DNA of 64,000 bases from Bacteroidaceae bacterium (GTDB lineage Bacteria > Bacteroidota > Bacteroidia > Bacteroidales > Bacteroidaceae): contig JAEESE010000006.1 in assembly GCA_016286165.1 (NCBI GenBank), positions 78,633-142,632 on the forward strand, read 5' to 3'. The notes under the pieces are model-generated. The model was given only the letters and a program-made list of their open reading frames with translations, was not told where the DNA came from and made no database searches. The translations under genes and the position numbers were made by a program. Numbering within the stretch: the stretch's first letter is position 1; every line of letters starts with the position of its first letter. This document shows positions 1 to 33,938 of this stretch, one piece after another.

Positions 1-874
1 TGGCGCGAGGGAAATCGGTATCAAGCACCACTTTCTGCGTGGCGGTAGTGATGCGCAAGTGAATGTCAGGCTGTACACCGAACTCATGGTTGAAGTTGTC
101 AATGGGATTGAACACTACGCTGTGTGCATGGCGCCCGTCCTTCAGGCGGATGGTGACCCGATGGGGCCGTTCAGACGTTGTGGGCCGTAAGGTGAATCCT
201 TTCCCGTCAATTAGTAAGTGTTGCCAGTCGGCAAGGTATTCGTCGGCCTGCACCGAGATGACTTCGCAGGATTGAGGCGTATCGTGGAGCGGGGTGGGAA
301 AGGCGAGCACTGCGATATCGCGCCAGTCACGCCATTCTTCGGTGAAGGGATGAGCGAGCACGGTGTCAATCAGACCGCCTCCACGAATGTCGGCACGGAC
401 GTAGCTTAGATGACGCATGGCTTGTTCGGGCTTAATCCAAGGTCCGCCGCTTGTAGCCCAGCCCGGACATGTCTGAAGGCTGAACCTTAACCCTAATCGA
501 TGCGCCTCCTCGGCAGTATGCTTGACCAAAGCCTCCCATTTAGGACTTAAACATTCAATGTGTTCCTCTGTGCCAGGCCAGTCGGCGGGATCACCCACTT
601 GTCCATGGAAGAATTGAATGCCTTGGATACCGGATTCCGCAATGGCCTCGAGGTCTTTTGTGATACCTTCTTGTCGTACGCTGCCGTTGATGAAATGGAA
701 CCAAGTCTCGGGATAGAAGATGCGGTCGGGATGAAGGAATGATGTCTCGTCGGTCGTGCTGAAAGGACGATTCAGCAACGAAGAATCAGGAGTGGCTCTG
801 AACGTGTCATGCGACCATGCGGTGAACATGGTGACCAGTGCCAGACAGAAAAGTAAGAATATTTTGTGTCTCAT
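1..874 (-). CDS. Secreted glycoside hydrolase, N-terminal part; the gene runs off the left edge. Family guess: GH106 / alpha-L-rhamnosidase-like.
   Basis: Hand translation of the reverse strand from the ATG (cat at 872-874) gives MRHKIFLLFCLALVTMFTAWS (signal peptide), then ...YPETWFHFINGSVRQEGITKDLEAIAESGIQGIQFFHG...SLQTCPGWATSGGPWIKPEQAM. It was checked stop-free from 874 down to about 421. Beyond that the frame was translated less carefully and appeared open to position 1. It is absent from the ORF track because there is no stop in the window. The family assignment is from memory of similar Bacteroidetes exo-glycosidases. Confidence 0.6.
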   Translation of the reverse strand, partial: MRHKIFLLFCLALVTMFTAWSHDTFRATPDSSLLNRPFSTTDETSFLHPDRIFYPETWFHFINGSVRQEGITKDLEAIAESGIQGIQFFHGQVGDPADWPGTEEHIECLSPKWEALVKHTAEEAHRLGLRFSLQTCPGWATSGGPWIKPEQAMRHLSYVRADIRGGGLIDTVLAHPFTEEWRDWRDIAVLAFPTPLHDTPQSCEVISVQADEYLADWQHLLIDGKGFTLRPTTSERPHRVTIRLKDGRHAHSVVFNPIDNFNHEFGVQPDIHLRITTATQKVVLDTDFPRA

Positions 875-921
875 CTAGGTTCGTTTTTAGAGGTAGATTA
901 TTGCAACTATTATTCTGGCTG

Positions 922-929
922 CAAAGTTA
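922..929 (-). promoter_or_regulatory. Bacteroidetes -7 box (TAACTTTG on the minus strand) for the partial glycosidase gene
   Basis: Plus strand reads caaagtta, which matches TAnnTTTG on the minus strand. It lies 48 nt upstream of the start at 874. Confidence 0.5.
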
Positions 930-1134
930 GGTAAAAGATTTGGCGTGGTCTAAGATTTTGTCCTTTTTTTGTCTTTGCTCGGTGAATACGCTCAAATGCA
1001 CTCGTAGGGCGAGTGTAAAGATTTCATGCTCAAAAGGCCCATTCCGTTACGCAAGAAATGCCTTCAAGAAGCTAAAAGTGCAACGAAGAAAGAAAAAGTG
1101 ACTGAAAAGTTGCGGTTGTTCGGAAATAAAGTTG

Positions 1135-1142
1135 TAATTTTG
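1135..1142 (+). promoter_or_regulatory. Bacteroidetes -7 box TAATTTTG upstream of thrS
   Basis: Exact TAnnTTTG match 75 nt upstream of the ATG at 1217. The leader contains a small hairpin, GAGCG-AGAA-CGCTC. Confidence 0.5.
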
Positions 1143-1216
1143 CAGCCGTGTTGTAAAAAAAGAGCGAGAACGCTCGACCAAAAGGAAATCAATAACAAAA
1201 CGACATAAGATTGACT

Positions 1217-3169
1217 ATGATCAAGATTACACTTCCCGACGGCTCTGTACTCGAACGCGAGGCAGGCGTAACGGGTTACGAGATTGCTGAGAGTATTTCA
1301 CCGGCTTTGGCCCGCAGCGTAGTGAGCTGTGGCGTGAACGGCGAGACTGTGGAGCTGAACCGCCCCATCACCGAGGACGCAGAGTTTGTGCTCTATAAGT
1401 TCGACGATGAGCAAGGCAAGCACACCTTCTGGCACACCAGCGCACACCTGTTGGCAGAGGCTCTGCAAGAGCTCTATCCCGGTGTTCAGTTCGGCTTCGG
1501 TCCTGCTATTGAGAACGGTTTCTATTACGATGTCCTGCTGCCCGATGGCAAGCAGATCAGCGAAGGCGACTTCGCCACGATAGAGGACAAGATGAAGGAA
1601 CTGGCAGGGAAGAAAGAACCCGTAGTGCGCCGTGAAGTGTCTAAGGCAGATGCTCTGAAGGAGTTTGCCGCCGATGGTCAGACTTTCAAAGTGGAGCATA
1701 TCGACCAGGACCTCGAGGATGGCACCATCACCACTTACACCCAGGGCAACTTCACCGACCTATGCCGCGGCCCACACCTTGTGAATACCGGCGACATAAA
1801 GGTCGTAAAGCTGACGAGCGTGGCAGGTTGCTTCTGGCGCGGTGACGCCGAGCGCGAAAGCATGCAGCGCCTCTATGGCATCAGCTTCCCCAAGAAGAAG
1901 ATGCTCGACGACTACTTGCTCATGCTCGAAGAGGCCAAGAAGCGCGACCACCGTAAGATTGGCAAGGAGATGGAGCTCTTTATGTTCAGCGACCGCGTTG
2001 GCAAGGGACTGCCCATCTGGTTGCCGAAGGGTACTGATCTGCGTCTGCGTCTGCAAGAGATGTTGCGTAAGATTCAGAAGCAGTACGGCTATCAGGAGGT
2101 CATCACGCCAAACATCGGTGGCAAGAACCTCTATCAGACTTCAGGCCACTGGGATCACTATGGCAAGGATAGCTTCCAGCCCATACAGACACCTGAGGAA
2201 GGCGAGGAGTACCTGCTGAAGCCTATGAACTGCCCGCACCACTGCGAGATCTTCGCCAATCGTCCCCGCTCCTATAAGGAGTTGCCCTTCCGCTGCGCCG
2301 AGTTCGGTACAGTGTATCGCTACGAGATGAGCGGTGAGCTGCACGGACTTACCCGCGTGCGCTGTTTCACACAGGATGATGCTCACATCTTCTGCCGTCC
2401 CGACCAGGTGAAGAAGGAGTTCACAAACGTTATCGACATCATTCAGCGTGTGTTCTCTACCTTCAATTTCAGCGATGAGAATGTTGAGGTGCAGATTTCA
2501 CTGCGCGACCCGAAGGATAAGAAAAAATATATCGGTTCAGACGAGGACTGGGCAAGCGCTGAACAGGCCATCGTTGATGCCTGTGAGGAGAAAGGCATGA
2601 AGGCTCGCAAGGAAATCGGCGAGGCCGCTTTCTATGGTCCCAAGCTCGACTTCATGGTCAAGGACGCCATCGGTCGTCGTTGGCAGCTCGGAACGATACA
2701 GGTTGACTATCAGTTGCCTCAGCGCTTCCAACTGGAATACACCGGCGAGGACAACCAGAAGCACCGTCCGGTGATGATTCACCGCGCGCCCTTCGGCTCT
2801 ATGGAGCGCTTCGTGGCTGTGCTCATCGAGCACACTGCAGGTCACTTCCCACTCTGGCTCACTCCAGACCAGGTGGCTATCCTGCCTATCTCAGATAAGT
2901 TCAACGACTATGCCAAGCAGGTTCAGGAGGTTCTCGGACAATATGACGTCCGTGCAATCCTCGACGACCGTTCCGAAAAGATAGGCCGCAAGATCCGCGA
3001 CAATGAGATGAAGCACATACCTTATCTGCTCATCGTTGGCGAGAAAGAAGCCGCAGATGGACTTGTGAGCGTAAGAAAACAGGGTCAAGGCGACCAAGGA
3101 AGCATGAAAATCGAAGATTTTGCAAAGAAAATCAACGAAGAAGTGCGTAGTATGACAGAAAAGTATTAA
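1217..3169 (+). CDS. thrS: Threonine--tRNA ligase
   Basis: The N-terminus [10 protein letters not shown] is TGS-like. Also seen: [37 protein letters not shown] and a class II catalytic core. The ATG at 1217 is preferred over the TTG at 1211 used by the ORF track. It heads the conserved thrS-infC-rpmI-rplT order. Confidence 0.95.
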
Positions 3170-3307
3170 CTTTGCGCCCGCTAATTTGACAATTCGACAG
3201 TTGACAGTTCTTGAAGGCTCATGCATCGCAAGCGCTGGGCGGATAGATTACAATAGAGACAGTTGACAGTCGGAACATAGAAAAAGCGGAAACGTAGATT
3301 ATTATTA

Positions 3308-3961
3308 ATGAAGAAAAACAACCTCAAAAGTCAGTATCGCGTTAACGAACAGATACGTGCTGCAGAAGTACGAGTCGTGGGCGATGATGTGGAATCGCAA
3401 GTGCTGCCACTGCGCGACGCCATTCATTTGGCCGAGCAGAAAGGCGTAGACCTTGTAGAGATATCGCCCAACGCCGAGCCCCCCGTGTGCCGCCTCATCG
3501 ACTACTCGAAATTCATCTACCAGCAGAAGAAACGCCAGAAGGAGATGAAGGCCAAGCAGGTGAAGGTGGAGGTTAAGGAGATTCGCTTCGGTCCTCAGAC
3601 CGACGACCACGACTACAACTTCAAGCTGAAGCACGCCCAAGGCTTCCTCTCGGACGGCGACAAGGTGAAGGCTTACGTCTTCTTCCGCGGCCGCTCAATC
3701 CTGTTCAAGGAACAAGGAGAGGTACTGCTCCTGCGTTTCGCTCAGGACCTGGAGGACTATGGCAAGGTAGAATCCATGCCTGTACTCGAAGGTAAGCGCA
3801 TGACGATGTTCATCGCCCCCAAGAAGGTGGCCCCCAAGAAAGCTGAGACCGACGATGACGACGACGATGACGTTGAAGAGCCGGTTCGCAAGAAACCTCA
3901 ACAGAAGGAACGTAAGGAATACACCGGTCCGAAGGTTGAGGGAGAGAACTGGGACGACTAG
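3308..3961 (+). CDS. infC: Translation initiation factor IF-3, with an acidic/lysine-rich C-terminal tail
   Basis: Motifs [39 protein letters not shown] and [21 protein letters not shown]. The tail is ...[27 protein letters not shown]. Confidence 0.93.
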
Positions 3962-4016
3962 TTGATAGTTGACAGTTGATAGTTGATAGTTGGCAGTTGA
4001 TAGTTGACAGTTGAAA
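3961..4016 (+). repeat. Tandem heptamer array, (GTTGAYA) x 8, starting at the infC stop codon
   Basis: gttgata gttgaca gttgata gttgata gttggca gttgata gttgaca gttgaaa. The same GTTGACA word also occurs twice in the thrS-infC spacer, at about 3199-3208 and 3261-3270. Confidence 0.9.
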
Positions 4017-4099
4017 GAAATGAAAAAGGATTGCGCGCTGCGCCCGGTATATGCGCAGCCGCGTCTGTTAATTAATAACAATTAAAAACAAACAAAAAA

Positions 4100-4297
4100 A
4101 TGCCAAAAGTAAAGACTAATTCCGGAGCAAAGAAGCGTTTCACGCTCACCGGAACGGGTAAGATTAAGCGTCACCACGCTTATCACAGCCACATCCTGAC
4201 AAAGAAAACCAAGAAGCAGAAGCGCAATCTGCAGCACAGCGACATCGTTGTCACTGCCAACCGCAAGCAGGTTCGCGAACTCCTCCTTCTTCGCTAA
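4100..4297 (+). CDS. rpmI: 50S ribosomal protein L35
   Basis: A 65-aa basic protein, [14 protein letters not shown]...TGKIKR. It sits between infC and rplT. Confidence 0.93.
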
Positions 4298-4379
4298 TCT
4301 CCTGTACAGGATAGAGAGTTAAACAAGTATTTCTGAAAGGAAATCACCCAAAGTCAAACCGAACGATGGCCTGAAAAGA

Positions 4380-4449
4380 GATTAGGGATTACGGATTAAA
4401 GATTGGAGATTAAAGATTAGAGATTATGGATTAAAGATTAGAGATAATC
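4380..4449 (+). repeat. Tandem heptamer array, (GATTARR) x 10, in the rpmI-rplT spacer
   Basis: gattagg gattacg gattaaa gattgga gattaaa gattaga gattatg gattaaa gattaga gataatc. It is followed by an AATC-rich stretch (4450-4500) that is partly complementary to it. Confidence 0.9.
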
Positions 4450-4530
4450 GCAATCGTAGAATCAAATCTTAAAATCAAATCGCAAGATCCGACAATCACA
4501 GTCCGCCTACGTTCAAAAACAAACAAAATT

Positions 4531-4875
4531 ATGCCAAGATCAGTTAATCACGTTGCTTCACGTGCAAAGAGAAAGAGAATCCTGAAGCTTACACGCGGCT
4601 ACTTCGGTGCCCGCAAGAACGTCTGGACCGTAGCCAAGAACACTTGGGAGAAAGGTCTGACCTACGCCTATCGCGATCGCAAGAACAAGAAGCGTTCATT
4701 CCGCGCTCTGTGGATCCAGCGTATCAACGCTGCCGCACGCATGGAAGGTATGAGCTACAGCCAGCTCATGGGCGCTCTGCACAAGGCTGGCGTTGAAATC
4801 AACCGCAAGGTGCTCGCCGACCTCGCCATGAACCACATGGAGGCTTTCAAGGCTATCGTAGCTAAGGTAAAGTAA
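4531..4875 (+). CDS. rplT: 50S ribosomal protein L20
   Basis: [30 protein letters not shown]...; 114 aa; last gene of the operon. Confidence 0.95.
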
Positions 4876-4912
4876 GTAAGCAAGGGGTCTCGCACCCATT
4901 TTGACTGAACAC

Positions 4913-4957
4913 AAAGAGAGGGCATGTCCAAACGGACACGCCCTCTCTCTTTGTTTG
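4913..4957 (+). terminator. Intrinsic terminator after rplT
   Basis: Stem aaagagagggcatgtcc / ggacacgccctctcttt with loop aaac, followed by tttgtttg. Confidence 0.7.
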
Positions 4958-24416: not shown

Positions 24417-24872
24417 ATGAAACTCGCTGAAGCTTTAAGCATCCGCAAGGATCTGCAAAAACGTATCCAACAGATAGGGAAACGTTTGGAAGATAACGTG
24501 AAGATACAGGAGGGCGACGAACCAGCCGAGAACCCGAAGGAACTGATGAAGGAATTGGACGAATGCCTGAAACAATTGGAAAACCTGATTTGGCGTATTA
24601 ACCTGACAAACGTTCAGACCGTGAATGAGGCAGGTAAGACCGTCACGCAACTGATGGCAGAGAAAGATGTACTTTCGTTACGCTTGTCGACTTTACGCGG
24701 CACTTTCGACAGGGCTTCTTCGCAACACGATCGTTATTCCCGTTCTGAAATAAAGATGATTACGGTGGTAGATGTCAAGCAACTGAGCAAGCAGATTGAC
24801 GAATACTCAGCTGCGCTACGCAAGCTTGATATGGAAATTCAGACGTTGAATTTCCAGACCGAACTCGTCTGA
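24417..24872 (+). CDS. DIP1984-family (septicolysin-like) coiled-coil protein
   Basis: MKLAEALSIRKDLQKRIQQ...ENPKELMKELDECLKQLENLIWRINLTN...RYSRSEIKMITVVDVKQL...LNFQTELV matches my memory of the DIP1984 family consensus. Confidence 0.6.
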   Translation: MKLAEALSIRKDLQKRIQQIGKRLEDNVKIQEGDEPAENPKELMKELDECLKQLENLIWRINLTNVQTVNEAGKTVTQLMAEKDVLSLRLSTLRGTFDRASSQHDRYSRSEIKMITVVDVKQLSKQIDEYSAALRKLDMEIQTLNFQTELV

Positions 24873-25114
24873 TTTCTATTGGAGACATTCACATTCATAG
24901 GGCGAACTGAAAAACAATTGGTCTCTGATCAATGCCCGTTCGGCCGGGAGCAGGCCTCCTTCTCATTGGAGAACTCACGGAGCAAGCTTAGCACGGCTGC
25001 AATCGCATGCATTGTTCATTTAGCACATTGCACTACCGTCAGTTGACTATGATTGTCGAATGTCTCCTTCCTTTGTTGTCCTTTTATAAATTGTTGTTGG
25101 CGATATAGAAGTTT

Positions 25115-25147
25115 TTCATTGATGAACCCTTGTGTTATTGGCACAAG
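25115..25147. promoter_or_regulatory. Two small palindromes (candidate operators) upstream of the WYL gene promoter
   Basis: TTCAT-TG-ATGAA (25115-25126) and CTTGTG-ttattgg-CACAAG (25129-25147), about 30-60 nt upstream of the -7 box at 25174. Confidence 0.3.
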
Positions 25148-25173
25148 CAAGATTGTTCACCTTTTCCTATTAT

Positions 25174-25181
25174 TATATTTG
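25174..25181 (+). promoter_or_regulatory. -7 box TATATTTG for the WYL-nuclease operon
   Basis: Exact TAnnTTTG match 34 nt upstream of the ATG at 25215. Confidence 0.55.
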
Positions 25182-25214
25182 CCGTAGTCATTTCCCTGCT
25201 TTTGTATTTTTACG

Positions 25215-26126
25215 ATGATTAGCAAAACTTATTATCGATATATCTGGCTGCTGAACTTGTTGCTTGATAGCGACCCTCTCACATTTGATGAGATCTGTAT
25301 GATGTGGAAAATGAATCCGGCGTTCGATGGTCCTTTACCCATCCGTACGTTCCACGAGCATCGGAAGGGCATCAAAGAGATGTTTGGCGTGGACATCGAA
25401 TGCGACCGTTCGAAGGGTAATGTCTATTACGTCAAGAATCCGGAGGTCTTGGGGAAGATGAAACTGGAGAAGTGGTTGTTGCGTAATTATAGCATTCCAC
25501 AGGACTTTGTGACCTTCAACGCTATGAAGGACCGTATCCTGCTGGAGGAGATACCGCTGGGGCAGGCTTTCTTGGATCATATCATCGAAGCGATGAAGTC
25601 GAACGTGGAACTGCGGATAGAATACCAGCGATATGAATACGGGCAGGACACTCATCGACAAACGATTCACATGCAACCATACGCCCTGAAGGTCTATAAC
25701 CGTCGTTGGTATCTGTTGGGCTATCTGAAGGAACAAGATGCCTTGCGCATCATCTCGTTAGACCGCATTCTAAGCTTGCAAGTGCTAAAGACCTTCTTTG
25801 AACTGCCTTCAAACTTCAATGCAAGGAAATACTTCGCTGATGTGGTCGGCATCTTCGTGAACGAAGATCTTCCTGTGACCAAAGTGAAGATTCGCGCCTA
25901 CGGTACTCAGGCAGAATACCTTCGCTCTACTCCGCTCCATAAAAGCCAATCCGAAGGTCGCTCCAAATATCGTGAGTTTGCAGAATTCACCTATAGACTG
26001 TGCATAACACCAGAGTTGGTCACTCAGTTGCTAGCAATGGGGGACAAGGTAGAGGTGCTGGAGCCGGAGGAGTTGAGAGAAGAGATGAAAGAAGAATTAA
26101 TTAAATGTTTAACAAATTATAAATAG
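25215..26126 (+). CDS. WYL-domain transcriptional regulator (wHTH-WYL-WCX, BrxR/CapW-like architecture)
   Basis: 303 aa. It has an N-terminal wHTH-like region (YRYIWLLNLLLDSDPLTFDEI), the WYL signature VYNRRWYLLGY, and a C-terminal extension ending ...VEVLEPEELREEMKEEL. Confidence 0.8.
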   Translation: MISKTYYRYIWLLNLLLDSDPLTFDEICMMWKMNPAFDGPLPIRTFHEHRKGIKEMFGVDIECDRSKGNVYYVKNPEVLGKMKLEKWLLRNYSIPQDFVTFNAMKDRILLEEIPLGQAFLDHIIEAMKSNVELRIEYQRYEYGQDTHRQTIHMQPYALKVYNRRWYLLGYLKEQDALRIISLDRILSLQVLKTFFELPSNFNARKYFADVVGIFVNEDLPVTKVKIRAYGTQAEYLRSTPLHKSQSEGRSKYREFAEFTYRLCITPELVTQLLAMGDKVEVLEPEELREEMKEELIKCLTNYK

Positions 26127-26130
26127 TGTT

Positions 26131-26889
26131 ATGCAAATATCAAATAAAAATGGTAAAATAATTACTTGCCTCTCAACATGGAAAGATGCTTTTATTGAAG
26201 TTGACAATCCAAAGCATTGGAAACCAGGTAGGAGCGCTCATTCTTTAGCTCTTCATTTTACACGCCCATCAATAAATGGTTCTAAAGGAATAGATGTTTT
26301 ATCGGAATATCTTGGATATCTGGGATTTAAAAATGTTTTATTCGATTATGCAGAAATAGAGCATGAGAGCCGTTTTGATACCTTCCGTGGAAATGGACGT
26401 ATTCAAGATTTAATGATTTGGGCAAAAAGCGGAAATCGCCCTTTAGCTATATGTATAGAAGCCAAGGTTGATGAAACATTTGATAAGAATGTACCAGATG
26501 CGTATAAAGAAAGAATGATTTATTCTTCCAAGAGACCTAAGAGCAAAACCCTTGATAGATTAAACTATATTTGTAAGCACTATTATAAAGTTGAACCCAA
26601 TAGTAGTGAACTGAATGATATTCGATATCAACTTCTTTACTATCTAGCAGGCTCTATCACTGAGGCCAAAAAAATTGATGGCGTTGCATTTATGCCAGTC
26701 TTTGTTTACCATACAGATTCATACAACGATCAAAATGGAGATAATAACAAAAAAGACTATGAGACATTTATCAAATCACTTAATTTTTCTTCTATAAGGG
26801 TTAATGACACAATCCAAATGTATAAGAATAAAATTGACGGCGTTGATGTTTATAGTGCATATATCGAAATAGAAAAAAATGATTATTAA
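26131..26889 (+). CDS. PD-(D/E)xK nuclease-fold protein (possibly DUF6946-like)
   Basis: It starts 4 nt after the WYL gene stop. The candidate catalytic pattern is EHESRFD ... IQDLMIW ... ICIEAKVDE (E / D / ExK). The N-terminal WKDAF...HWKPGRSAHSLALHF resembles my recollection of DUF6946. This is unverified. Confidence 0.5.
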   Translation: MQISNKNGKIITCLSTWKDAFIEVDNPKHWKPGRSAHSLALHFTRPSINGSKGIDVLSEYLGYLGFKNVLFDYAEIEHESRFDTFRGNGRIQDLMIWAKSGNRPLAICIEAKVDETFDKNVPDAYKERMIYSSKRPKSKTLDRLNYICKHYYKVEPNSSELNDIRYQLLYYLAGSITEAKKIDGVAFMPVFVYHTDSYNDQNGDNNKKDYETFIKSLNFSSIRVNDTIQMYKNKIDGVDVYSAYIEIEKNDY

Positions 26890-26970
26890 TAATTTAAAAT
26901 AAGAGATACCTTTGTAAAATCTATTTTATCTTCATTTTTAGAATAAATATATAGAATACATCTCCTTTCT

Positions 26971-27011
26971 GCGGCGTTTTTGCATAACAAACAGCAAAAA
27001 CGTCGTTTTTT
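26971..27011 (+). terminator. Intrinsic terminator of the WYL-nuclease operon (first copy of a duplicated cassette)
   Basis: gcggcgtttttgc-ataacaaaca-gcaaaaacgtcg followed by tttttt. The 12-bp stem contains one G-U pair, which is valid only on the plus-strand RNA. Confidence 0.8.
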
Positions 27012-27085
27012 GTGACTTTTCATTCGTATATATATATTTATAGGGGCTGGTATGAAAAGGTGTGCCCCATGATGTTTCACTAAAA

Positions 27086-27093
27086 TATATTTG
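27086..27093 (+). promoter_or_regulatory. -7 box TATATTTG upstream of the 101-aa acidic membrane protein gene
   Basis: Exact TAnnTTTG match 45 nt upstream of the ATG at 27138. Confidence 0.5.
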
Positions 27094-27137
27094 TATATGG
27101 CATTACATATTATTTTATTCGCGACAAAGAAGGTCGC

Positions 27138-27443
27138 ATGGAAAAGATTCTGGACGATAAGGAGTATGATAGTTATCAAATGAGAAAGGGATGCTTTCAG
27201 TTCCTGTTAGCTGCTGCTCTTATAGGCTTGGCGGTTTATGGTAGCACCATGCAAGAGCCTGAAGACTCCTCAGATGCACAGACGGAGACGCCCACAATAG
27301 AGACTGAAGAAACCATTGAAATGAAAGAGGAGGAAGCGTCATCCGAGGAAGAGGACTTAGAAGATGTAAAAACAGAAACCGAAGACACCTCTTCTGTCAT
27401 TGACGAAGATGAATTGGTACAGCGGTTCAAGGAGAATCAGTAA
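27138..27443 (+). CDS. Small membrane-anchored protein with an extremely acidic tail
   Basis: 101 aa with one TM helix (CFQFLLAAALIGLAVYG). The 62-residue tail is about 40% D/E (EPEDSSDAQTETPTIETEETIEMKEEEASSEEEDLEDVKTETED...). Confidence 0.6.
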   Translation: MEKILDDKEYDSYQMRKGCFQFLLAAALIGLAVYGSTMQEPEDSSDAQTETPTIETEETIEMKEEEASSEEEDLEDVKTETEDTSSVIDEDELVQRFKENQ

Positions 27444-27507
27444 GAATAAAAGAATAGATTTATAAACACTTAGCAGTTCGTCCGACACGTAGATAGGGCT
27501 ATGTCAC

Positions 27508-27921
27508 ATGAAAATAACTGAGAAATACGTAAACGAGTCGCATCTTGAAGAGGTTTATCAACTCTTGCATAAAGGTGAAAAGTTGATTGATCTTGACTTG
27601 GAAAACGTGAAGAGTGTGCTTGTAGGAAAAGAGGGCATTCTTTACGAGGCCTATAAAGACGGCGGTGCAGAGAATGGCGCCTTTATGGAAGAATTCTTTG
27701 ATACGGTGAAAAAGATGGAAATGGTTCAAAACTGCACAGGAATACTATTCAACATAACCATGCCGGATGATGATCAATTGATGATGGAGGATATGGACAT
27801 TATCAATTGCTTCCTCAAATTATTTGAAGAAAAGAATATGATGATTCGTTGGGGGTTAAGGGTTGATGAGCAGGGAAGCCAGACATCTATATTAATGATC
27901 TGCACTAAAGATAAACAGTAA
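27508..27921 (+). CDS. Stand-alone FtsZ C-terminal-domain-like protein
   Basis: 137 aa. By eye it aligns along its length with E. coli FtsZ residues about 205-316. The matched pairs are LIDLDLENVKSVL vs LINVDFADVRTVM, CTGILFNITMPDDDQLMMEDMD vs ARGVLVNITAGFDLRLDEFE, and TSILMICTK vs LRVTVVATG. There is no N-terminal GTP-binding domain. Confidence 0.6.
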   Translation: MKITEKYVNESHLEEVYQLLHKGEKLIDLDLENVKSVLVGKEGILYEAYKDGGAENGAFMEEFFDTVKKMEMVQNCTGILFNITMPDDDQLMMEDMDIINCFLKLFEEKNMMIRWGLRVDEQGSQTSILMICTKDKQ

Positions 27922-27982
27922 AAGTGCGGAGCCAGTATTGGGCCTTCTTACACCCAAATTCCACAAATTACATATCCTTTCT

Positions 27983-28022
27983 GCGGTGTTTTTGCACATC
28001 AAACAGCAAAAACGCCGTTTTT
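27983..28022 (+). terminator. Intrinsic terminator (second copy of the duplicated cassette)
   Basis: gcggtgtttttgc-acatcaaaca-gcaaaaacgccg followed by ttttt. The wobble pair is U-G here, versus G-U at the same stem position in copy 1. Confidence 0.8.
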
Positions 28023-28083
28023 GTATCTATTCTTTCGTATATATATAATAGAGGGCTATTCCTCTTAACGAGTAAAAGTAGTA

Positions 28084-28434
28084 ATGATGCAAGAACAGAA
28101 GACACTAACCGTGACAGACATCTTGGGCAACGCAGTCAACACACCGTTGCTCAGTAATGAGGAAGAAATCCGTATGTCAAAGAAGGTAAGAGAGGGTGAT
28201 GAGGCGGCTATCAAGGAGTTCAAACAATGCAATGCGCGCTTCGTGGCGGCAGTCGCCAAGCAGTACACCGACCGAGGCATGACCATCGACGAGCTGATGG
28301 AGGCGGGCTACGACGGACTCATAGAAGCAGCATGTAAGTACGACGAGAAAGACGGATTCAAGTTTATCAGCTATGCCGTTTGGTGGATTCGACAAAACAT
28401 TCTACAAGTCCTATTTGCACCAGCTTCGAACTAA
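28084..28434 (+). CDS. Sigma-70 family protein truncated to regions 1.2-2.4 (sigma-2 domain only)
   Basis: TPLLSNEEEIRMSKKVREGDEAAIKEFKQCNARFVAAVAKQYTDRGMTIDELMEAGYDGLIEAACKYDEKDGFKFISYAVWWIRQNI aligns colinearly with primary-sigma regions 1.2-2.4. The ORF stops 10 codons after WWIRQ. There are no regions 3 or 4. Confidence 0.75.
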   Translation: MMQEQKTLTVTDILGNAVNTPLLSNEEEIRMSKKVREGDEAAIKEFKQCNARFVAAVAKQYTDRGMTIDELMEAGYDGLIEAACKYDEKDGFKFISYAVWWIRQNILQVLFAPASN

Positions 28435-28474
28435 AAAGAATCAAATAGATAACCAATCTCAATACTTACATCTT

Positions 28475-28936
28475 ATGATTACAACAAGACTTACAACCAA
28501 GAAATCCGAATTCCGTGAGATGCTCAGCAAGCTCAACGCCCAGCAAAAGCGTCTCTTCAGTCCCGATGAGGTGGATTACCTCTCGAACTGCAATAGCTTT
28601 GAGTATCTGGAGTTCAAGCAGGAAGATGAGGATGACGATGAATTCCTCAAGCAGTTTTCCACCTGGCTGCACGAGTGCCCCAAGCATCAGGGGCACGTGG
28701 ATTACTATGTCCTGTTCTATCTCTGTATGGGCGAGACGCTGACCCGAGATCAGTTCGAGTACATGGAGCGGAACGTCGCCGAATGCTTCGACACTAGCCA
28801 CGGCTGGATCTACGAGATCAACAACCGTATTCGCTTCAAGATGCGTGTCCGTCTGATATGCAGTTACAAGAACAAGATGCGTCGTCTGACAAGAAAGGAT
28901 TGGAGAGAAGGAACTGAGATTGACGAAAACAAATGA
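28475..28936 (+). CDS. Hypothetical protein with a weak sigma region-4-like HTH (possible second half of a split sigma factor)
   Basis: The ATG at 28475 was chosen because the longer 28373 start overlaps the sigma-2 ORF. YYVLFYLCMGETLTRDQ...VAECFDTSHGWIYEINNRIRFKMR loosely resembles region 4.1-4.2 (xxVLxLRFG...xxEVGxxFGVTRERIRQIExKALRKLR). It also has an acidic stretch, QEDEDDDEF. Confidence 0.4.
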   Translation: MITTRLTTKKSEFREMLSKLNAQQKRLFSPDEVDYLSNCNSFEYLEFKQEDEDDDEFLKQFSTWLHECPKHQGHVDYYVLFYLCMGETLTRDQFEYMERNVAECFDTSHGWIYEINNRIRFKMRVRLICSYKNKMRRLTRKDWREGTEIDENK

Positions 28937-28955
28937 TTGGATTAACCGTAACGTC

Positions 28956-29849
28956 ATGAAAGAGACCACAACGAAGATATTGAAGAGACTTGTCGCCGAA
29001 GGCATGAAAATGCGCTATGGCGACAACCCTGACAGAAAAGTGAAACTGAGAATACTATGGGAGCTGAAGCATATCATAGATGCCGGCTTCGAGGGCCACT
29101 ATATCATGGTCTTTAGGTTATTCAGGCATTATGCTGAGACCGTAAAGATGGGCTATAGGGGGCGCGGCGCGATGTGTTCCTCTATTGTTTGCTACTGCTT
29201 GGGCCTCACAGAGGTTGATCCTCTGCGCTTTGGCCTTCACTCGGCTCGTTTCGTAAACGATGAGCCGCCCAAGTTTCAATTTGACTTCGAGGCATCACAC
29301 TACGATGAGTTCATGCAAGGGGCACAGCATCTGCTTGTAGCTAATGCAAAGGACTACGACATGGAGGTCGTGCGCTTGTCTCTGGATGTCACACCGATGG
29401 CATATCTGAGCAGGAAACGTGAAGCGCCAGAGCCTGAGGACCTCGATGATGAGATAGCGCGTGATGCCCTTATTCGACCTGACACGATGGACTTGTATGA
29501 TGCTTACATGCGTCGCAAAAGTGACGGGCTCTGGACGAGACATGGTGGACGTCTCGATGAGATACTGGCTCCTACCTGCGGATTTTTGGTATATCAAGAG
29601 CAAATGCTGGACATCCTTCGCCAGTTCTTTCACGTGAGCGGAATCAAGGCCAACCAAATCCGCCTGAGCATTCAACGAGGAGACACAGAGCAAGTTGAAA
29701 CTTACAAGCAGGAACTCTTTGCTCACCTCGAAGACCTCACAGAGAAAAAGGCCGAATGGCTCTGGCAACTCCTCACCAGCAATCCTCATGCCTTCCTGAA
29801 AGCTCATGCGGTTAGTCGTGTGCTGGCAAAGTGTCATTTTGAATATTAA
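28956..29849 (+). CDS. Miniature DnaE (Pol III alpha)-like protein lacking the catalytic aspartates
   Basis: Segment 1, ELKHIIDAGFEGHYIMVF...GYRGRGAMCSSIVCYCLGLTEVDPLRFGLHSARFVNDEPPKFQFDF, aligns with DnaE ELQVINQMGFPGYFLIV...[48 protein letters not shown]. Segment 2, ALIRPDT...YMRRKSDG...LAPTCGFLVYQEQMLDILRQ...ANQIRLSIQRGD...FLKAHAVSRV, aligns with the fingers region (ALFRPGP...FIDRKHG...LEPTYGIILYQEQVMQIAQ...ADMLRRAMGKKK...FNKSHSAAYA). The ATG at 28956 is preferred over the TTG at 28920. Confidence 0.65.
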   Translation: MKETTTKILKRLVAEGMKMRYGDNPDRKVKLRILWELKHIIDAGFEGHYIMVFRLFRHYAETVKMGYRGRGAMCSSIVCYCLGLTEVDPLRFGLHSARFVNDEPPKFQFDFEASHYDEFMQGAQHLLVANAKDYDMEVVRLSLDVTPMAYLSRKREAPEPEDLDDEIARDALIRPDTMDLYDAYMRRKSDGLWTRHGGRLDEILAPTCGFLVYQEQMLDILRQFFHVSGIKANQIRLSIQRGDTEQVETYKQELFAHLEDLTEKKAEWLWQLLTSNPHAFLKAHAVSRVLAKCHFEY

Positions 29850-29884
29850 TCGACAAAATAATAGTGAGAATAACAGAAAAAGTG

Positions 29885-29892
29885 TATTTTTG
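29885..29892 (+). promoter_or_regulatory. -7 box TATTTTTG for the PD-(D/E)xK / MBL operon
   Basis: Exact TAnnTTTG match 21 nt upstream of the ATG at 29913. Confidence 0.5.
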
Positions 29893-29912
29893 CAGAGTAA
29901 TAAATCGTTAAA

Positions 29913-30806
29913 ATGAATTTTATGGATAAAAAGTATTTCAAATTAAACAAGGATGCAGCATTATTTGAGTTTTTGTCTCATAAGCCTATGTGGTGGAAAT
30001 TGCTTTTAGAGGACAAGGACTTATATGTGAATATTAGAAAAGAAAACAGGATAAATGTTTATTATCGTGGAGCTTCTATAATGAGCCTTAGTTATAATGA
30101 TGGCAAGGTAACAGCTGAAATTCATAACTATTACTTGGGATTTGAGAAGGATACATGTGCTGCTTTAGGAATCAAATACGGCAATCAAAAGAAAGCCCCC
30201 GAAGAAATCGTTTGCAGACTTCCGATGATAAAGAAACGAGTAGAGGCGAACAAGAAGTACATCGCTTGTTTAGAGGAGGAAGGAATGGTAGGGAACATCT
30301 ATTCAAGTGAAAAGTATGTTCAATCACAACTCTATATGAATGATAACCATTACTTCGATACTGAATTTGCACTCAGGTTGGATGATGGCACAGATATCAG
30401 AATAGATTTGGTAAGAATGTCTGATCATGGCGAAATCTGCTTCGTGGAACTGAAATTGATTGATGACCAGCGACTTTATCCATCAAGTGGAAGAGATGCT
30501 GAGATCATTACCCAGATGGAAAATTATGAAAGATTCCTTTTAGAAGCTAATAAGTTGAAAGGAAAAACTGGTAAACCAATTCTTATCGAATATTATACAA
30601 CAGTCTTGGAAATTATGGAGAAGATAGGTATTCACCGTACATCCATTAAACCTGTAATGGTACATGACAAAGTCTTTCTCTTTATAAAACAAACCTACAC
30701 AAAGAAATCTTCAGGAAGAGAAAAACGCCTGAACACAATTAAAAAAGTATGTGATGGTTTATACTCCAATATTGATGATGTTTTAACGGATTATAATAGC
30801 CTATGA
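29913..30806 (+). CDS. PD-(D/E)xK nuclease-fold protein
   Basis: 297 aa. The candidate core is SEKYVQSQL ... IRIDLVRMSDHGEICFVELKLID (E / D / ExK spacing typical of restriction-endonuclease-like folds). Its stop overlaps the next start (ATGA at 30803-30806). Confidence 0.5.
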   Translation: MNFMDKKYFKLNKDAALFEFLSHKPMWWKLLLEDKDLYVNIRKENRINVYYRGASIMSLSYNDGKVTAEIHNYYLGFEKDTCAALGIKYGNQKKAPEEIVCRLPMIKKRVEANKKYIACLEEEGMVGNIYSSEKYVQSQLYMNDNHYFDTEFALRLDDGTDIRIDLVRMSDHGEICFVELKLIDDQRLYPSSGRDAEIITQMENYERFLLEANKLKGKTGKPILIEYYTTVLEIMEKIGIHRTSIKPVMVHDKVFLFIKQTYTKKSSGREKRLNTIKKVCDGLYSNIDDVLTDYNSL

Positions 30807-32026
30807 CCATTACCATTCATCGCGGCCTTGACCAGATAGGCGGCTGCATAACTGAGATAAGTACAGCAACGTCCCGCATCTTTGTGGATATGGGGCAGAA
30901 TCTACCAGGCAATGGTGAGAAAACCACACCGGCGCAGGACAAGGAGATGGTGGAAGGGCTGTTCAAGAACAACCCCAAAGCACATGAAGCCGTCATCTAT
31001 ACTCATGCACATGAAGATCATATAGGACTCTTTGATTATGTGCCGAAGGGCGTTCCTCAGATGATAGGAGAAGGTGCCAAGGATGTCTTGCTGGAAAAAT
31101 ACAGGTTGCTGTGCAAGGCTGATGAGGCAGCAGGAAATGACCCTGCTACAAATCTTCGGAAACGAGCAAAGCTAAAACGTTTTAAGACGTGGCCTCGAAG
31201 CCGTGATCCCAAACCATTCAGCGTTGGCGATATACAGATTACGCCCTTCTTCAACTGCCATTCCATCTATGACTCCTATATGTTTCTGATTGAGGCCGAC
31301 AGTAAGCGCGTCTGGCATATGGGCGACTATCGTCAGCACGGCTGGATGGGTGGCAAGTTGCTGCAACTGCTGAGATGGAGGGCCACGAATATCGACACCT
31401 TAATTACGGAAGGTACAATGCTTGGGCGTGAAGAGGAATGTATCACAGAAAAAGAGGTGTCTGAAAAGATGGCCCACGTGATGCGTGCCTTTAAATATGT
31501 CTTCGTACTGACCTCTGCCACAGACATTGAGCGTCTTGCCAGCATCAATTTGGCAGCAAGGCAAGTGAACAGGCCGCTCTATGTCAGCTCAGGGCTTTTG
31601 AATGCAGCAATGAAAATCTTTACTCATCGTGAAGCGAAGACACCTGGCGACCTGTTCTTTTTCAAGCCTCGTTACTATGGTGGGTTTAAGCATTTGGAAC
31701 CAATGAGAAAACGTGGTTTTGTGATGATTACCAACGTTGGAAAGTTTGTGGACATGGATAATCTTCGCCGTGAATTGCCAGAGAGTGAAACCCTACTCAT
31801 CTATTCCTCATGGGACGGCTACTACAATGACCCAGAGCAAGTGCGCCTCAATCCGATGTATGCCATGTTTCGCGGAGCGTTTCACAACGTAGTAGATATC
31901 CATACTTCTGGCCATGCCGACCGAAAGACCATCAAGCAGGTCATCGAGACCATCCATCCCAAGGAGGTCATCTGTATTCACAAAGAAAAAGGACAGTCGT
32001 TGGAGTCATTAGGAATACATTATTGA
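30803..32026 (+). CDS. Metallo-beta-lactamase fold nuclease of the beta-CASP / RNase J-like type
   Basis: Motifs HAHEDHIG (HxHxDH), FNCHS, HMGDY, the TEGT beta-CASP motif A-like element, and C-terminal HTSGHADRKTIKQVIETIHPKEVICIHKE (motif C). Confidence 0.75.
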   Translation: MTITIHRGLDQIGGCITEISTATSRIFVDMGQNLPGNGEKTTPAQDKEMVEGLFKNNPKAHEAVIYTHAHEDHIGLFDYVPKGVPQMIGEGAKDVLLEKYRLLCKADEAAGNDPATNLRKRAKLKRFKTWPRSRDPKPFSVGDIQITPFFNCHSIYDSYMFLIEADSKRVWHMGDYRQHGWMGGKLLQLLRWRATNIDTLITEGTMLGREEECITEKEVSEKMAHVMRAFKYVFVLTSATDIERLASINLAARQVNRPLYVSSGLLNAAMKIFTHREAKTPGDLFFFKPRYYGGFKHLEPMRKRGFVMITNVGKFVDMDNLRRELPESETLLIYSSWDGYYNDPEQVRLNPMYAMFRGAFHNVVDIHTSGHADRKTIKQVIETIHPKEVICIHKEKGQSLESLGIHY

Positions 32027-32155
32027 CTAGGGAACTCGATTCATGCAATATTTGAATTAAATATTTCTTTTTTAACCTGAAGAATAGGCGCGTGCCTCAT
32101 AGGGGCAAGGTTAAACTTGGCTGCCGAAAGAAAATGTATGGGCTGAGTGCTTTCC

Positions 32156-32869
32156 CTATTTTACATAGTCTGGGTCGAAGTGGCTATGGTATTCTAAGCA
32201 CAATTGTCGGTAGTATTCTCGCGTGGTGTCGCTTGTCGTGTCAGAACGGATGATCTCATAATAGTAATGTGATAGTCCTGGCTCTAGGCCGGTCTCTGTA
32301 TGGATGACGTTGTATAGCGAATCGCCCAGCACGGGTCGGCAGACGTCCTCGGGATTTGCTGCATAGAACATGCGGTAACTCTTCACCTGTACCTCTGTCT
32401 GCAAATACTCGAATGCCATGTTAAAGAGGTCGCCCCAATAGCCACGGTTGCTGGTCTGGTGCTTGTAACTGCCGAAGATACCGCGCTCAGTGGCTGTTGA
32501 TTTCACGTCGTCGATGACAATACTTATCTTATCATATTCGCAGACAACGGTGGTGCGTGCCAGATCCTTCAGCTCGAATGGCCTGGATTTATCGGAACGG
32601 CATTTGCGCTCGGCGCTCTCACGGGTCTTGTAGTCAAGAGGCGTGGTTTTACCGTTGTGGCGTGCAGCCACCTCTTCGGCAAGTGCCTGTGTCGGTGGGC
32701 CATATATTTGAGCCCACCTAATGGCCTGATCCAGTTCGGCCTGAAATTCTTTTTCTAATTGTTGCTCCGCATCGATAGGGTCGTCTTCGCGGTCGCAGGA
32801 GACGAAGAAGAAGCTGAAGGTGAGGACGGCGATCAGCATCCACAATTGTCGTAAAGATTTCATTATCAT
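32156..32869 (-). CDS. Lipoprotein with a RelA/SpoT-like (small alarmone synthetase-type) nucleotidyltransferase domain
   Basis: The start was moved to the ATG at 32869, giving MIMKSLRQLWMLIAVLTFSFFFVSC (lipobox). Synthetase-type motifs are present in order: YKTRESAERKCR, LKDLARTTVVCE, RGYWGDLF, TEVQVKSYRMFYA. Confidence 0.6.
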   Translation of the reverse strand: MIMKSLRQLWMLIAVLTFSFFFVSCDREDDPIDAEQQLEKEFQAELDQAIRWAQIYGPPTQALAEEVAARHNGKTTPLDYKTRESAERKCRSDKSRPFELKDLARTTVVCEYDKISIVIDDVKSTATERGIFGSYKHQTSNRGYWGDLFNMAFEYLQTEVQVKSYRMFYAANPEDVCRPVLGDSLYNVIHTETGLEPGLSHYYYEIIRSDTTSDTTREYYRQLCLEYHSHFDPDYVK

Positions 32870-32942
32870 GGTAAGTTTGATGTTTCTGTTTGTAAAGGTA
32901 GTGAAAAATACGTGAAAGGCATGCCCTTTAGTGGATTTTTTA

Positions 32943-32950
32943 TATCTTTG
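32943..32950 (+). promoter_or_regulatory. -7 box TATCTTTG upstream of the oxidoreductase gene
   Basis: Exact TAnnTTTG match 29 nt upstream of the ATG at 32979. Confidence 0.55.
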
Positions 32951-32978
32951 CGCCCAGAAACGATAATATCCACAACTA

Positions 32979-33938
32979 ATGAATATCGCAATCATTGGCA
33001 CAGGAAAGATTGTTCACGAGGCGCTGCCGGTGATCGTTGGGACCGAAGGCATCGTGGTGCGCAGCATCTGGTGCCGTGAGCATTCGTTGGCGAAGGCGGA
33101 GGCGTTGGCGGCGCAGTTCGGCATTCCGCAGGTTGCGACGGATTATGCAGCGGTATTGGCTGACCCACAGGTCGATACCGTATATGTTGCTCTCGTCAAC
33201 AGCGTTCATTACGCCTATGCCTTGCAGGCGTTGCAAGCAGGAAAAAACGTTATCCTTGAGAAGCCGGCGTGCATGAGTCATCGCGAGCTTGCCCGTCTGG
33301 CCGAGGAAGCGCGAGGCCGTGGGCTGATGCTCTTCGAGGCCGTCACGCTGTTGCACTTGCCCGCCTTCCATCTCCTTCAAACAGAGCTGCTGCCGCAGTT
33401 GGGCGCCATTCGCCATGTCGAGTGCAACTACAGCCAACGCTCCAGCCGTTATGATGCTTATTTGCGTGGTGAAGTGCTGCCCGCCTTCGACCCGTCGGTT
33501 GGTGGCGGTGCGCTCATGGACATCAATATCTACAATCTCCATTTCGTCATTGCCCTCTTCGGCAAGCCCGATTCAGCTCGTTACTATTGCCGTCGCGGCT
33601 TCAATGGCGTAGATTTGTCGGGGACGGTGGTGATGAACGCGCCGCTCAGCCTCTGTACTGGCGCTAAGGATACCGATGCGCCGAGCTTTGGACTGCTGCA
33701 GGGCGACAACGGATGGTTGCGCATCGAGGGACCTGTCAGCACGATGGCGGCCATGACCATTTGTCTTCGTGGTCAGCAGCCGCGACAAATTCCCCTTGCG
33801 CCCGTCAGCCATCGCCTGGCCCCCGAGTTCGCGGCCTTCGCTGATATCCTCCGTCGGCAGGACTTCGCCACGATGAACAGCCTGCTCGACCATTCCCTCG
33901 CCGTCATGAAGGTGGTGGATGAGATCGTGTCAGATTAA
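32979..33938 (+). CDS. Gfo/Idh/MocA family oxidoreductase
   Basis: N-terminal Rossmann motif MNIAIIGTGKIVHEA plus EKPACMSHRELARL, which is typical of the family. Confidence 0.85.
   Translation: MNIAIIGTGKIVHEALPVIVGTEGIVVRSIWCREHSLAKAEALAAQFGIPQVATDYAAVLADPQVDTVYVALVNSVHYAYALQALQAGKNVILEKPACMSHRELARLAEEARGRGLMLFEAVTLLHLPAFHLLQTELLPQLGAIRHVECNYSQRSSRYDAYLRGEVLPAFDPSVGGGALMDINIYNLHFVIALFGKPDSARYYCRRGFNGVDLSGTVVMNAPLSLCTGAKDTDAPSFGLLQGDNGWLRIEGPVSTMAAMTICLRGQQPRQIPLAPVSHRLAPEFAAFADILRRQDFATMNSLLDHSLAVMKVVDEIVSD

Follow-up and report, generated by a model that had tools for sequence, protein, structure and literature searches.

A candidate two-nuclease module in a low-GC island of a Bacteroidaceae genome: recurrent pairing of a RecB-type PD-(D/E)xK protein with a beta-CASP metallo-beta-lactamase protein

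What might two predicted nucleases encoded by overlapping genes do together at the end of a low-GC island, in which the fraction of guanine plus cytosine falls well under that of the surrounding chromosome? The question is raised by a locus of a Bacteroidaceae bacterium (NCBI GenBank assembly GCA_016286165.1), which we analyzed within a stretch of 64,000 nucleotides (contig JAEESE010000006.1, positions 78,633 to 142,632 of the forward strand) that is called the window throughout and numbered from its first letter. The upstream gene, here named gene A, belongs to a family without characterisation, and the downstream gene, here named the MBL gene, codes for a protein of the metallo-beta-lactamase (MBL) fold. 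Our answer, which we hold to be somewhat probable, is that A and MBL constitute a modular two-nuclease effector cassette, carried by a mobile island that is usually headed by a WYL regulator and belonging to the gene pool of biological conflict. Because the pair is recurrent, sometimes fused, and found mostly among restriction and defence genes, we take it for a probable module against phages or mobile DNA of a kind not described before. The features on which the argument starts are these:

29913..30806, + strand: gene A, an open reading frame (ORF) call; 297 amino acids (aa), two-domain protein, family without characterisation.
30803..32026, + strand: MBL gene, an ORF call; predicted 407-aa nuclease of the beta-CASP metallo-beta-lactamase fold.
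30803..30806, + strand: ATGA overlap of the A stop codon and the MBL start codon, seen in the sequence and read as translational coupling.
29885..29892, + strand: TATTTTTG, a motif-scan match to TAnnTTTG (the Bacteroidota -7 promoter box), within the 63-nt spacer 5' of A.

A first-pass annotation of this DNA had described a 297-aa ORF with E / D / ExK spacing (IRIDLV...FVELK), whose stop overlaps the ATG of a 407-aa MBL ORF. Both observations hold: the overlap is the ATGA at 30803-30806, and the residues that define the spacing, D165 and E179-L-K181, are invariant in 26 homologues of A. The protein itself had no match in Pfam, NCBIfam, PHROGs, PADLOC or the PDB sequences, either as a single sequence or as a profile. 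A word-indexed search returned 75 close homologues, and a profile search of 1.8 billion representative proteins placed 849 clusters in the family at E <= 1e-3. Gene A is under purifying selection, the ratio of nonsynonymous to synonymous substitution rates (dN/dS) being 0.18 against comparison locus L067 and 0.07 against L007. An AlphaFold model of A had a mean predicted local distance difference test (pLDDT) of 93 and a predicted template-modelling score (pTM) of 0.89, and it divides into two domains, with a linker of low confidence near residue 125:

29913..30293, + strand: N-terminal domain of A, residues 1-127; helices plus a four-strand beta-meander, from alignment and model.
30294..30803, + strand: C-terminal RecB-type PD-(D/E)xK domain of A, residues 128-297; from invariant columns, model and Foldseek.

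The evidence for a nuclease lies in the C-terminal domain. Besides the residues already given, E133, Q137, D149, E151 and Q201..Y205 are invariant in the same homologues, and R163-I (ahead of D165), D185 and R187 are further invariant positions. Four of these elements, E151, D165, E179-x-K181 and Q201xxxY205, correspond to the E / D / ExK / QxxxY set of RecB-type PD-(D/E)xK nucleases, and in the model they are carried by strands 152-155, 161-169 and 174-182 and by helix 197-213, as expected for the fold. Modelled alone, the domain had a pLDDT of 94, and its best Foldseek match was E. coli SduA (probability 0.95, template-modelling (TM) score 0.48), followed by the R2 retrotransposon endonuclease (0.84), Card1, EndoMS and Exo5; Cas4 was also among the top PD-(D/E)xK matches for A. 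Foldseek lists for A were dominated by PD-(D/E)xK nucleases, with a best E-value of 8e-3; whole-protein searches against PDB and BFVD gave nothing below E 1e-3, and excising the C-terminal domain raised the SduA probability to 0.95 with no better E-value. The nuclease fold that the first-pass annotation had assigned to A is supported by these models, by the position of the motifs on the expected strands and, at E-values of only about 1e-2, by the SduA match, and nuclease activity is predicted from it.

The N-terminal domain is of another kind. Its invariant residues form a set rich in basic and aromatic side chains (W27 W28 R42 K43 N45 N48 Y50 G53-A-S55 H71 Y74), and it weakly resembles YdhG/DUF1801 proteins (Foldseek probability 0.9, TM(target) 0.46). 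We presume that it is the recognition part of the protein, sensing a nucleic acid or a ligand.

The second protein could be placed with more precision. Pfam matched it to Lactamase_B_2 (32 bits, cut-off 27) and RMMBL (23.9 bits, cut-off 21.6), and it has all seven catalytic motifs of the beta-CASP subfamily: motifs 1-4 are D29, H68-A-H-E-D-H73, H153 and D175, and motifs A, B and C are E203, H371 (HTSGH, 367-371) and H393 (IHKE). These residues are invariant in 33 homologues, except D29 (32/33) and H367 (31/33), and with a dN/dS of 0.16 the protein, like A, is under purifying selection. In an alignment with the PDB sequence of B. subtilis RNase J1 it is co-linear over residues 55-272 and 349-395. 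The first-pass annotation had listed HAHEDH, the downstream His/Asp motifs and HTSGHA as motif C; all of these are present, but since the RNase J1 alignment sets H393 as motif C, HTSGHA is motif B and the earlier name was a labelling slip. A histidine at motif C together with an RMMBL domain is the RNA-type beta-CASP signature, SNM1 and Artemis having a valine at motif C, and the substrate of the MBL protein may therefore be RNA or single-stranded nucleic acid. The pair might act on RNA or on DNA, the MBL signature pointing to the former and the RecB-type partner to the latter.

Score, length and patchy distribution rule out that the MBL protein is an RNase J of the housekeeping kind. Its NCBIfam matches, RNase J, aCPSF1 and Cas14, were all far under their cut-offs; the RNase J models TIGR00649/NF047419 gave 61.4 bits (cut-off 400) and 56.4 bits (cut-off 820). 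It covers only positions 8-256 of the RNase J profile, has 407 aa against about 550 aa, and is without the RNase J C-terminal domain. Furthermore, the MBL family is present in 15 of the 301 sampled genomes of the order (about 5%). An RNase J orthologue would have told against the first-pass interpretation, and the MBL protein is not one. No protein encoded in this genome scored above the curated RNase J cut-off.

If A and MBL function together, they should be found together in other genomes, and it was on this co-occurrence that the first-pass annotation had made its two-nuclease module depend. A comparison seeded with A covered 24 loci, drawn from assemblies and from one genome per species, and in 23 of them the MBL gene was adjacent to A or one to two genes away; these loci include Ignavibacteria, Rikenellaceae and a metagenome-assembled genome (MAG) of the Gammaproteobacteria. 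On a Rhizobium phaseoli plasmid the order is MBL then A, beside two methylases and a GIY-YIG nuclease. An unbiased sample of the order gave A relatives in 7 of 301 genomes, five of them adjoining an MBL gene, and one of the two A-positive genomes without an adjacent MBL gene carries a pseudogene. About ten other independent loci show the same 4-nt overlap of the MBL gene with its upstream partner. Two proteins, P0198 (734 aa, from two independent samples) and P0300, are fusions of A with MBL that keep the gene order. In all, the pair co-occurs in at least four phyla, and these counts, overlaps and fusions bear the expectation out. Cultured carriers are Prevotella sp. tc2-28 and Rhizobium phaseoli N671 (plasmid pRphaN671a). 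In a same-family genome, at L060 (G132:C2:441688-442479), an A relative is interrupted by an internal TGA stop and has no MBL gene nearby, and is thus a decayed remnant of the module. A phage origin of the pair is ruled out by the absence of any A relative from 50,697 phage records and from a pattern-seeded scan of IMG/VR viral contigs; the sole MBL match among phages was 23% identical.

The genes around the pair fit a defence or restriction-like role. In 27 diverse loci we surveyed the genes lying no more than 3 kb from the pair, 124 in all, with matches to 127 Pfam families, and found Type II and C5 methylases, AlwI, EcoRII-C, GmrSD, MmeI, HNH, a nicking endonuclease, Schlafen/AlbA, integrases and IS21. 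WYL/WCX regulators recur in the sister loci, and DnaE-like proteins of 130 to 888 aa lie near the pair, being neighbours in 12 of the 24 loci. Directly 3' of the MBL gene, and often overlapping it, 11 of 40 loci have a 200-aa MPPED2-like metallophosphoesterase that is absent from the window; an Mre11/SbcD-like role for this enzyme was considered and rejected on account of its MPPED2-like character. The fullest version of the operon is that of L020, a horse-gut Bacteroidaceae MAG, in which positions 246-4945 code for WYL (310 aa), A (279), MBL (430), REase-ARP/PDDEXK_13 (332) and Metallophos (188) proteins. At least seven representative proteins are fusions of A with REase-ARP/PDDEXK_13. In two other sister loci, a 184-aa DnaB_C-type ATPase (L024, 998-1552) and a 194-aa ClpP-like protein (L025, 5004-5588) stand beside the core of WYL, MBL and Metallophos genes.

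In the window the pair lies at the end of such a neighbourhood:

25207..32052, + strand: low-GC island carrying the pair; WYL-WCX regulator, small genes (sigma, DnaE pieces), A and MBL.

The island is 6.8 kb long, with a GC content of 29-50% against 55-64% in the flanks. It is headed by a regulator that Pfam identifies as WYL-WCX (25215-26126), and the small genes 5' of the pair include a sigma region 2 protein and a mini-DnaE. The copy of the island in L067 is about 92% identical over 28030-32052 and 80-83% identical further left, and it lies between different flanking genes; the island is therefore mobile. A Pfam scan found no integrase or transfer gene in the island of the window.

The two genes are associated as interchangeable parts. 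The MBL family is wider than the A family, with more than 2,700 matches, and in loci found with MBL as the seed the slot 5' of the MBL gene holds A, relatives of A, or proteins of 200-370 aa without Pfam match. Cluster c12 (hhalign 98%) and the 317-aa protein of L069 (87%) are clear A relatives. The Pfam-less proteins have the same hDhh...ELK...QxxxY order and are next-ranked in the A-profile search, with weak scores; for c18, c5 and c42, which gave hhalign probabilities of 1-17% against the A profile and E-values of 2.6e-4 to 0.8 with hidden Markov models, homology to A would rest on the shared motif order and is unproven. Between the window and L007, A is 84% identical and MBL 31%, and conversely, between the window and L020, L024 and L025, MBL identity reaches 59-64% and A is 39-40% identical or absent. 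The histories of A and MBL are incongruent, and their lineages have been reshuffled independently. Module shuffling of this kind is typical of defence genes.

The place of exchange can be located closely. DNA homology between the window and L007 ends at 30855, about 50 nt inside the MBL gene, and that between the window and L069, whose MBL protein is 80% identical and whose upstream partner is remotely related, begins at 30792. These breaks, at 30792-30855, make the A|MBL junction a recombination point, and recombination seems to take place in the conserved 5' end of the MBL gene. A relic is visible in L004, L005 and L006 (8001-8100, P0063), in which the annotated A begins with MQITIHRGINQIDECI, derived from an MBL N-terminus (MTITIHRG.NQIGGCI), which suggests that a cassette went in directly behind the start of an MBL gene. 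Furthermore, two metatranscriptome runs of bovine rumen yielded contigs with about 97% identity to the window in which A is precisely deleted, 29841 being joined to 30763; the joint puts the mini-DnaE ORF in frame with the last 14 codons of A (...HF|DSNIDDVLTDYNSL*), and the ATGA overlap is kept.

How the cassette might operate can be proposed from these parts. The WYL-WCX protein, a repressor of the BrxR/CapW type, would keep the operon low and allow its induction on infection or DNA damage. The N-terminal domain of A would recognise a nucleic-acid feature and its RecB-type PD-(D/E)xK domain would nick or cut, leaving 5'-phosphate ends, from which the beta-CASP enzyme would degrade processively in the 5'-to-3' direction. 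In sister loci the MPPED2-like metallophosphoesterase and the REase-ARP nuclease would add end-processing or cutting. The characterised members of the beta-CASP class (RNase J, SNM1A, Apollo) are 5'-to-3' exonucleases that prefer 5'-monophosphate ends.

Several points weigh against a two-nuclease defence cassette. The proposed order of endonuclease then exonuclease derives purely from the enzymology of the two superfamilies, and the fold matches of A appear only at E-values of about 1e-2. A and MBL match 0 PADLOC v2 (PADLOC-DB v2.0) families at E <= 0.01, the first-pass annotation had put the name of no defence system to the locus, and the pair is not described in the literature searched. With no methylase consistently linked to it, the pair has no evident means of telling self from non-self, and its frequent neighbours (DnaE pieces and, in L004, a UmuDC-like pair) would suit a DNA-damage role as well. 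Finally, there are the close relatives in which A is deleted and the MBL gene kept, and in about one in four MBL loci no A relative can be recognised, so that A cannot be a strict requirement wherever the MBL gene is kept.

Three other explanations were ranked below the two-nuclease cassette. According to the first, which we regard as unlikely, the pair is a module of DNA-damage repair or tolerance, in which a WYL activator would control a structure-specific PD-(D/E)xK nuclease and an SNM1/Artemis-like beta-CASP exonuclease that process damaged ends or crosslinks, phosphoesterase and polymerase-related proteins being added in sister loci. WYL activators of the DNA-damage type are known (PafBC, DriD), as are the repair nucleases of the SNM1 group of beta-CASP enzymes, and WYL regulators head many of these loci; the DnaE-like neighbours in half of the 24 loci, and a pair of Peptidase_S24 and Y-family polymerase genes 3' of the cluster in L004 and L006, would also be at home in such a module. 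However, the WYL protein belongs with the WYL-WCX (BrxR/CapW) regulators and motif C is His, not the Val of SNM1/Artemis. Nor would repair account readily for a patchy presence in about 2-5% of genomes, for the foreign GC content of an island found at different chromosomal sites, for the rapid shuffling of A and MBL lineages, or for restriction-modification and defence neighbours in several phyla.

A second explanation, in our judgement doubtful as well, is that the pair serves the island itself, through addiction or exclusion, through degradation of the nucleic acids of host or competitor during transfer, or through an anti-defence activity on immune signalling nucleotides. It draws on the mobility of an island that carries shrunken copies of host proteins (sigma and DnaE here, DnaB_C and ClpP in sister loci), on the partner phosphoesterase, which is like MPPED2, of a family with cyclic-nucleotide phosphodiesterase activity, and on weak Pfam matches of some MBL homologues to Apyc1 (anti-Pycsar). 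Against this, the full beta-CASP/RMMBL architecture is typical of polynucleotide nucleases and not of the small Apyc1 type, and the pair also occurs away from the rest of the island, beside restriction-modification genes. The lack of relatives in the phage collection and in the pattern-seeded IMG/VR scan, and of any integrase or transfer gene in the island of the window, also speaks against it.

The same shrunken genes might instead be parts of an immune system, and we have considered, as quite improbable, that A and MBL are the executioner arm of a decoy-guard island. The pieces of host machines (sigma region 2 and mini-DnaE; DnaB_C and ClpP in sister loci) would be bait for phage inhibitors or modifying enzymes, and engagement of the bait, or derepression by the WYL protein, would unleash both nucleases, with the N-terminal domain of A coupling sensing to cutting. 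The third and weakest of the three lower-ranked explanations, ordinary RNA processing by an RNase J-like housekeeping ribonuclease and an accessory protein that lie in the island by chance, could appeal to best family matches with RNase J and aCPSF1, to the RNA-type signature and to a genome lacking an RNase J above the curated cut-off, but is very improbable given 61 bits against a cut-off of 400, the missing C-terminal domain, a presence in 15 of 301 genomes that does not track phylogeny, the foreign GC and mobile context, and the linkage of MBL to a PD-(D/E)xK protein and to defence genes.

Expression of the two-nuclease cassette from a promoter of its own, as the first-pass annotation had proposed, is plausible from the sequence. 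The -7 box that it placed at 29885 is present as TATTTTTG, 21 nt 5' of the first ATG of gene A. However, the window has 46 copies of TAnnTTTG against about 25 expected by chance in the motif scan, so that a single copy is little proof; the -33 TTTG was not found upstream of TATTTTTG. In L067 and L068 the identity of the surrounding 4 kb is 91.6%, but only 2 changes fall within the 63-nt spacer, box included, and the position in L008 that aligns with TATTTTTG reads TATCTTTG. The true start of A may be its second ATG, at 29922 (MDKKYF), because most homologues begin there. Contigs of rumen metatranscriptomes overlap parts of both genes, and one (30726-31067, with a single mismatch) crosses the A|MBL junction; being sparse, undirected and possibly DNA, these contigs neither confirm nor refute the promoter.

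Further features were seen in the island and just beyond it. Within 25215-26889, a DUF6946 protein (252 aa) starts 4 nt after the WYL-WCX regulator, and the gene at this place is swappable, because the slot in L067 holds a different 253-aa protein without Pfam match. Two intergenic copies of an element of about 80 nt lie at 26957-27036 and 27969-28047 (1,012 nt apart, 87-91% identity). The element contains a GC-rich hairpin followed by TATATATA, has copies between cassettes in L067 as well, and may set gene cassettes apart as a terminator/promoter unit. Just beyond the island, 32156-33001 on the - strand codes for a predicted lipoprotein of 281 aa, whose GC content of 47% is still below that of the flanks and which has no match in Pfam, NCBIfam, PHROGs or PADLOC.

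Both folds are already known and nuclease-based defence modules are common; it is the A-MBL pairing that is absent from PADLOC v2 and from the literature searched. Should the pair prove to function in defence or conflict, it would present a new two-gene architecture, joining a RecB-type family of 849 clusters without a Pfam model to a stand-alone beta-CASP nuclease, and type VII CRISPR was the only defence use of a beta-CASP enzyme, outside housekeeping RNA metabolism, in the literature searched. Free recombination of A and MBL at a fixed junction, together with the natural fusions, would make the pair a tractable system for the study of nuclease-partner exchange in the defence islands of Bacteroidota from gut and rumen. 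Screens centred on E. coli give a poor sample of the defence systems of this phylum. The pair also offers a handle on the surrounding island of shrunken host-machine genes, which is the more unusual feature.

Comparison with known systems sets the pair apart from each of them. Conflict systems centred on ADP-ribosylglycohydrolase (ARG), which are regulated by WYL or Nudix proteins and have REase-ARP effectors and phosphatases, as presented in the section devoted to them by Iyer et al. (2022, PMC9503650), share with these loci a WYL repressor, a calcineurin-like phosphoesterase and variable modules that are gained and lost between close relatives, and that section makes no mention of a beta-CASP MBL protein or of the A family. 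Judged from its name, Pfam REase-ARP (PF22558) would be the rapidly evolving restriction endonuclease (REase) described there. No ARG family was found in the scanned ORFs of the window, in the gene-by-gene Pfam results of the comparison loci or among the 25 most frequent of the 127 neighbour families, and no chaperone family in the Pfam results for these loci; membership of the ARG-centred systems was rejected, only WYL, phosphoesterase and REase-ARP being shared.

In type VII CRISPR-Cas, Cas14 (PMC13069675) likewise is a beta-CASP nuclease that does the cutting in a defence system, and a separate partner would provide the targeting. Membership was rejected here: the MBL protein scored 21.7 bits with the Cas14 NCBIfam model (cut-off 800), the ten ORFs scanned in 24417-33001 gave only a chance-level Cas8c match (E 0.005) and WYL-domain matches to Cas families, and 24800-32300 holds no repeat array. 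HamMAB, a Hachiman variant with validated anti-phage activity, combines an MBL-like protein with a protease-HamA nuclease and the HamB helicase (PMC13069673), and thus has an MBL-fold protein working with a PD-(D/E)xK-type nuclease, as in the pairing described here. However, our pair is without helicase or protease, and the HamM MBL is described as AVAST-associated, not as beta-CASP; neither A nor MBL matches any PADLOC model, Hachiman's included, and HamMAB membership was accordingly rejected.

Taken singly, each protein has a closer counterpart. The MBL protein has the seven motifs, the motif C His and the RMMBL domain of RNase J, CPSF73 and Integrator-11 (PDB 3zq4, 7pcr, 7sn8), and differs from RNase J in its length of 407 aa, in having no C-terminal dimerisation domain, and in being patchy, island-borne and coupled to a PD-(D/E)xK protein. 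Protein A resembles Shedu SduA (DUF4263; PDB 8ps5, 8ti9) in having an N-terminal non-catalytic domain followed by a PD-(D/E)xK domain, and both are found in a defence-island context. Membership of Shedu was rejected, as A has no DUF4263 match in Pfam or PADLOC at E <= 0.01. The N-terminal domain of A is different from that of SduA. Shedu consists of a single gene, whereas A comes coupled or fused with another nuclease.

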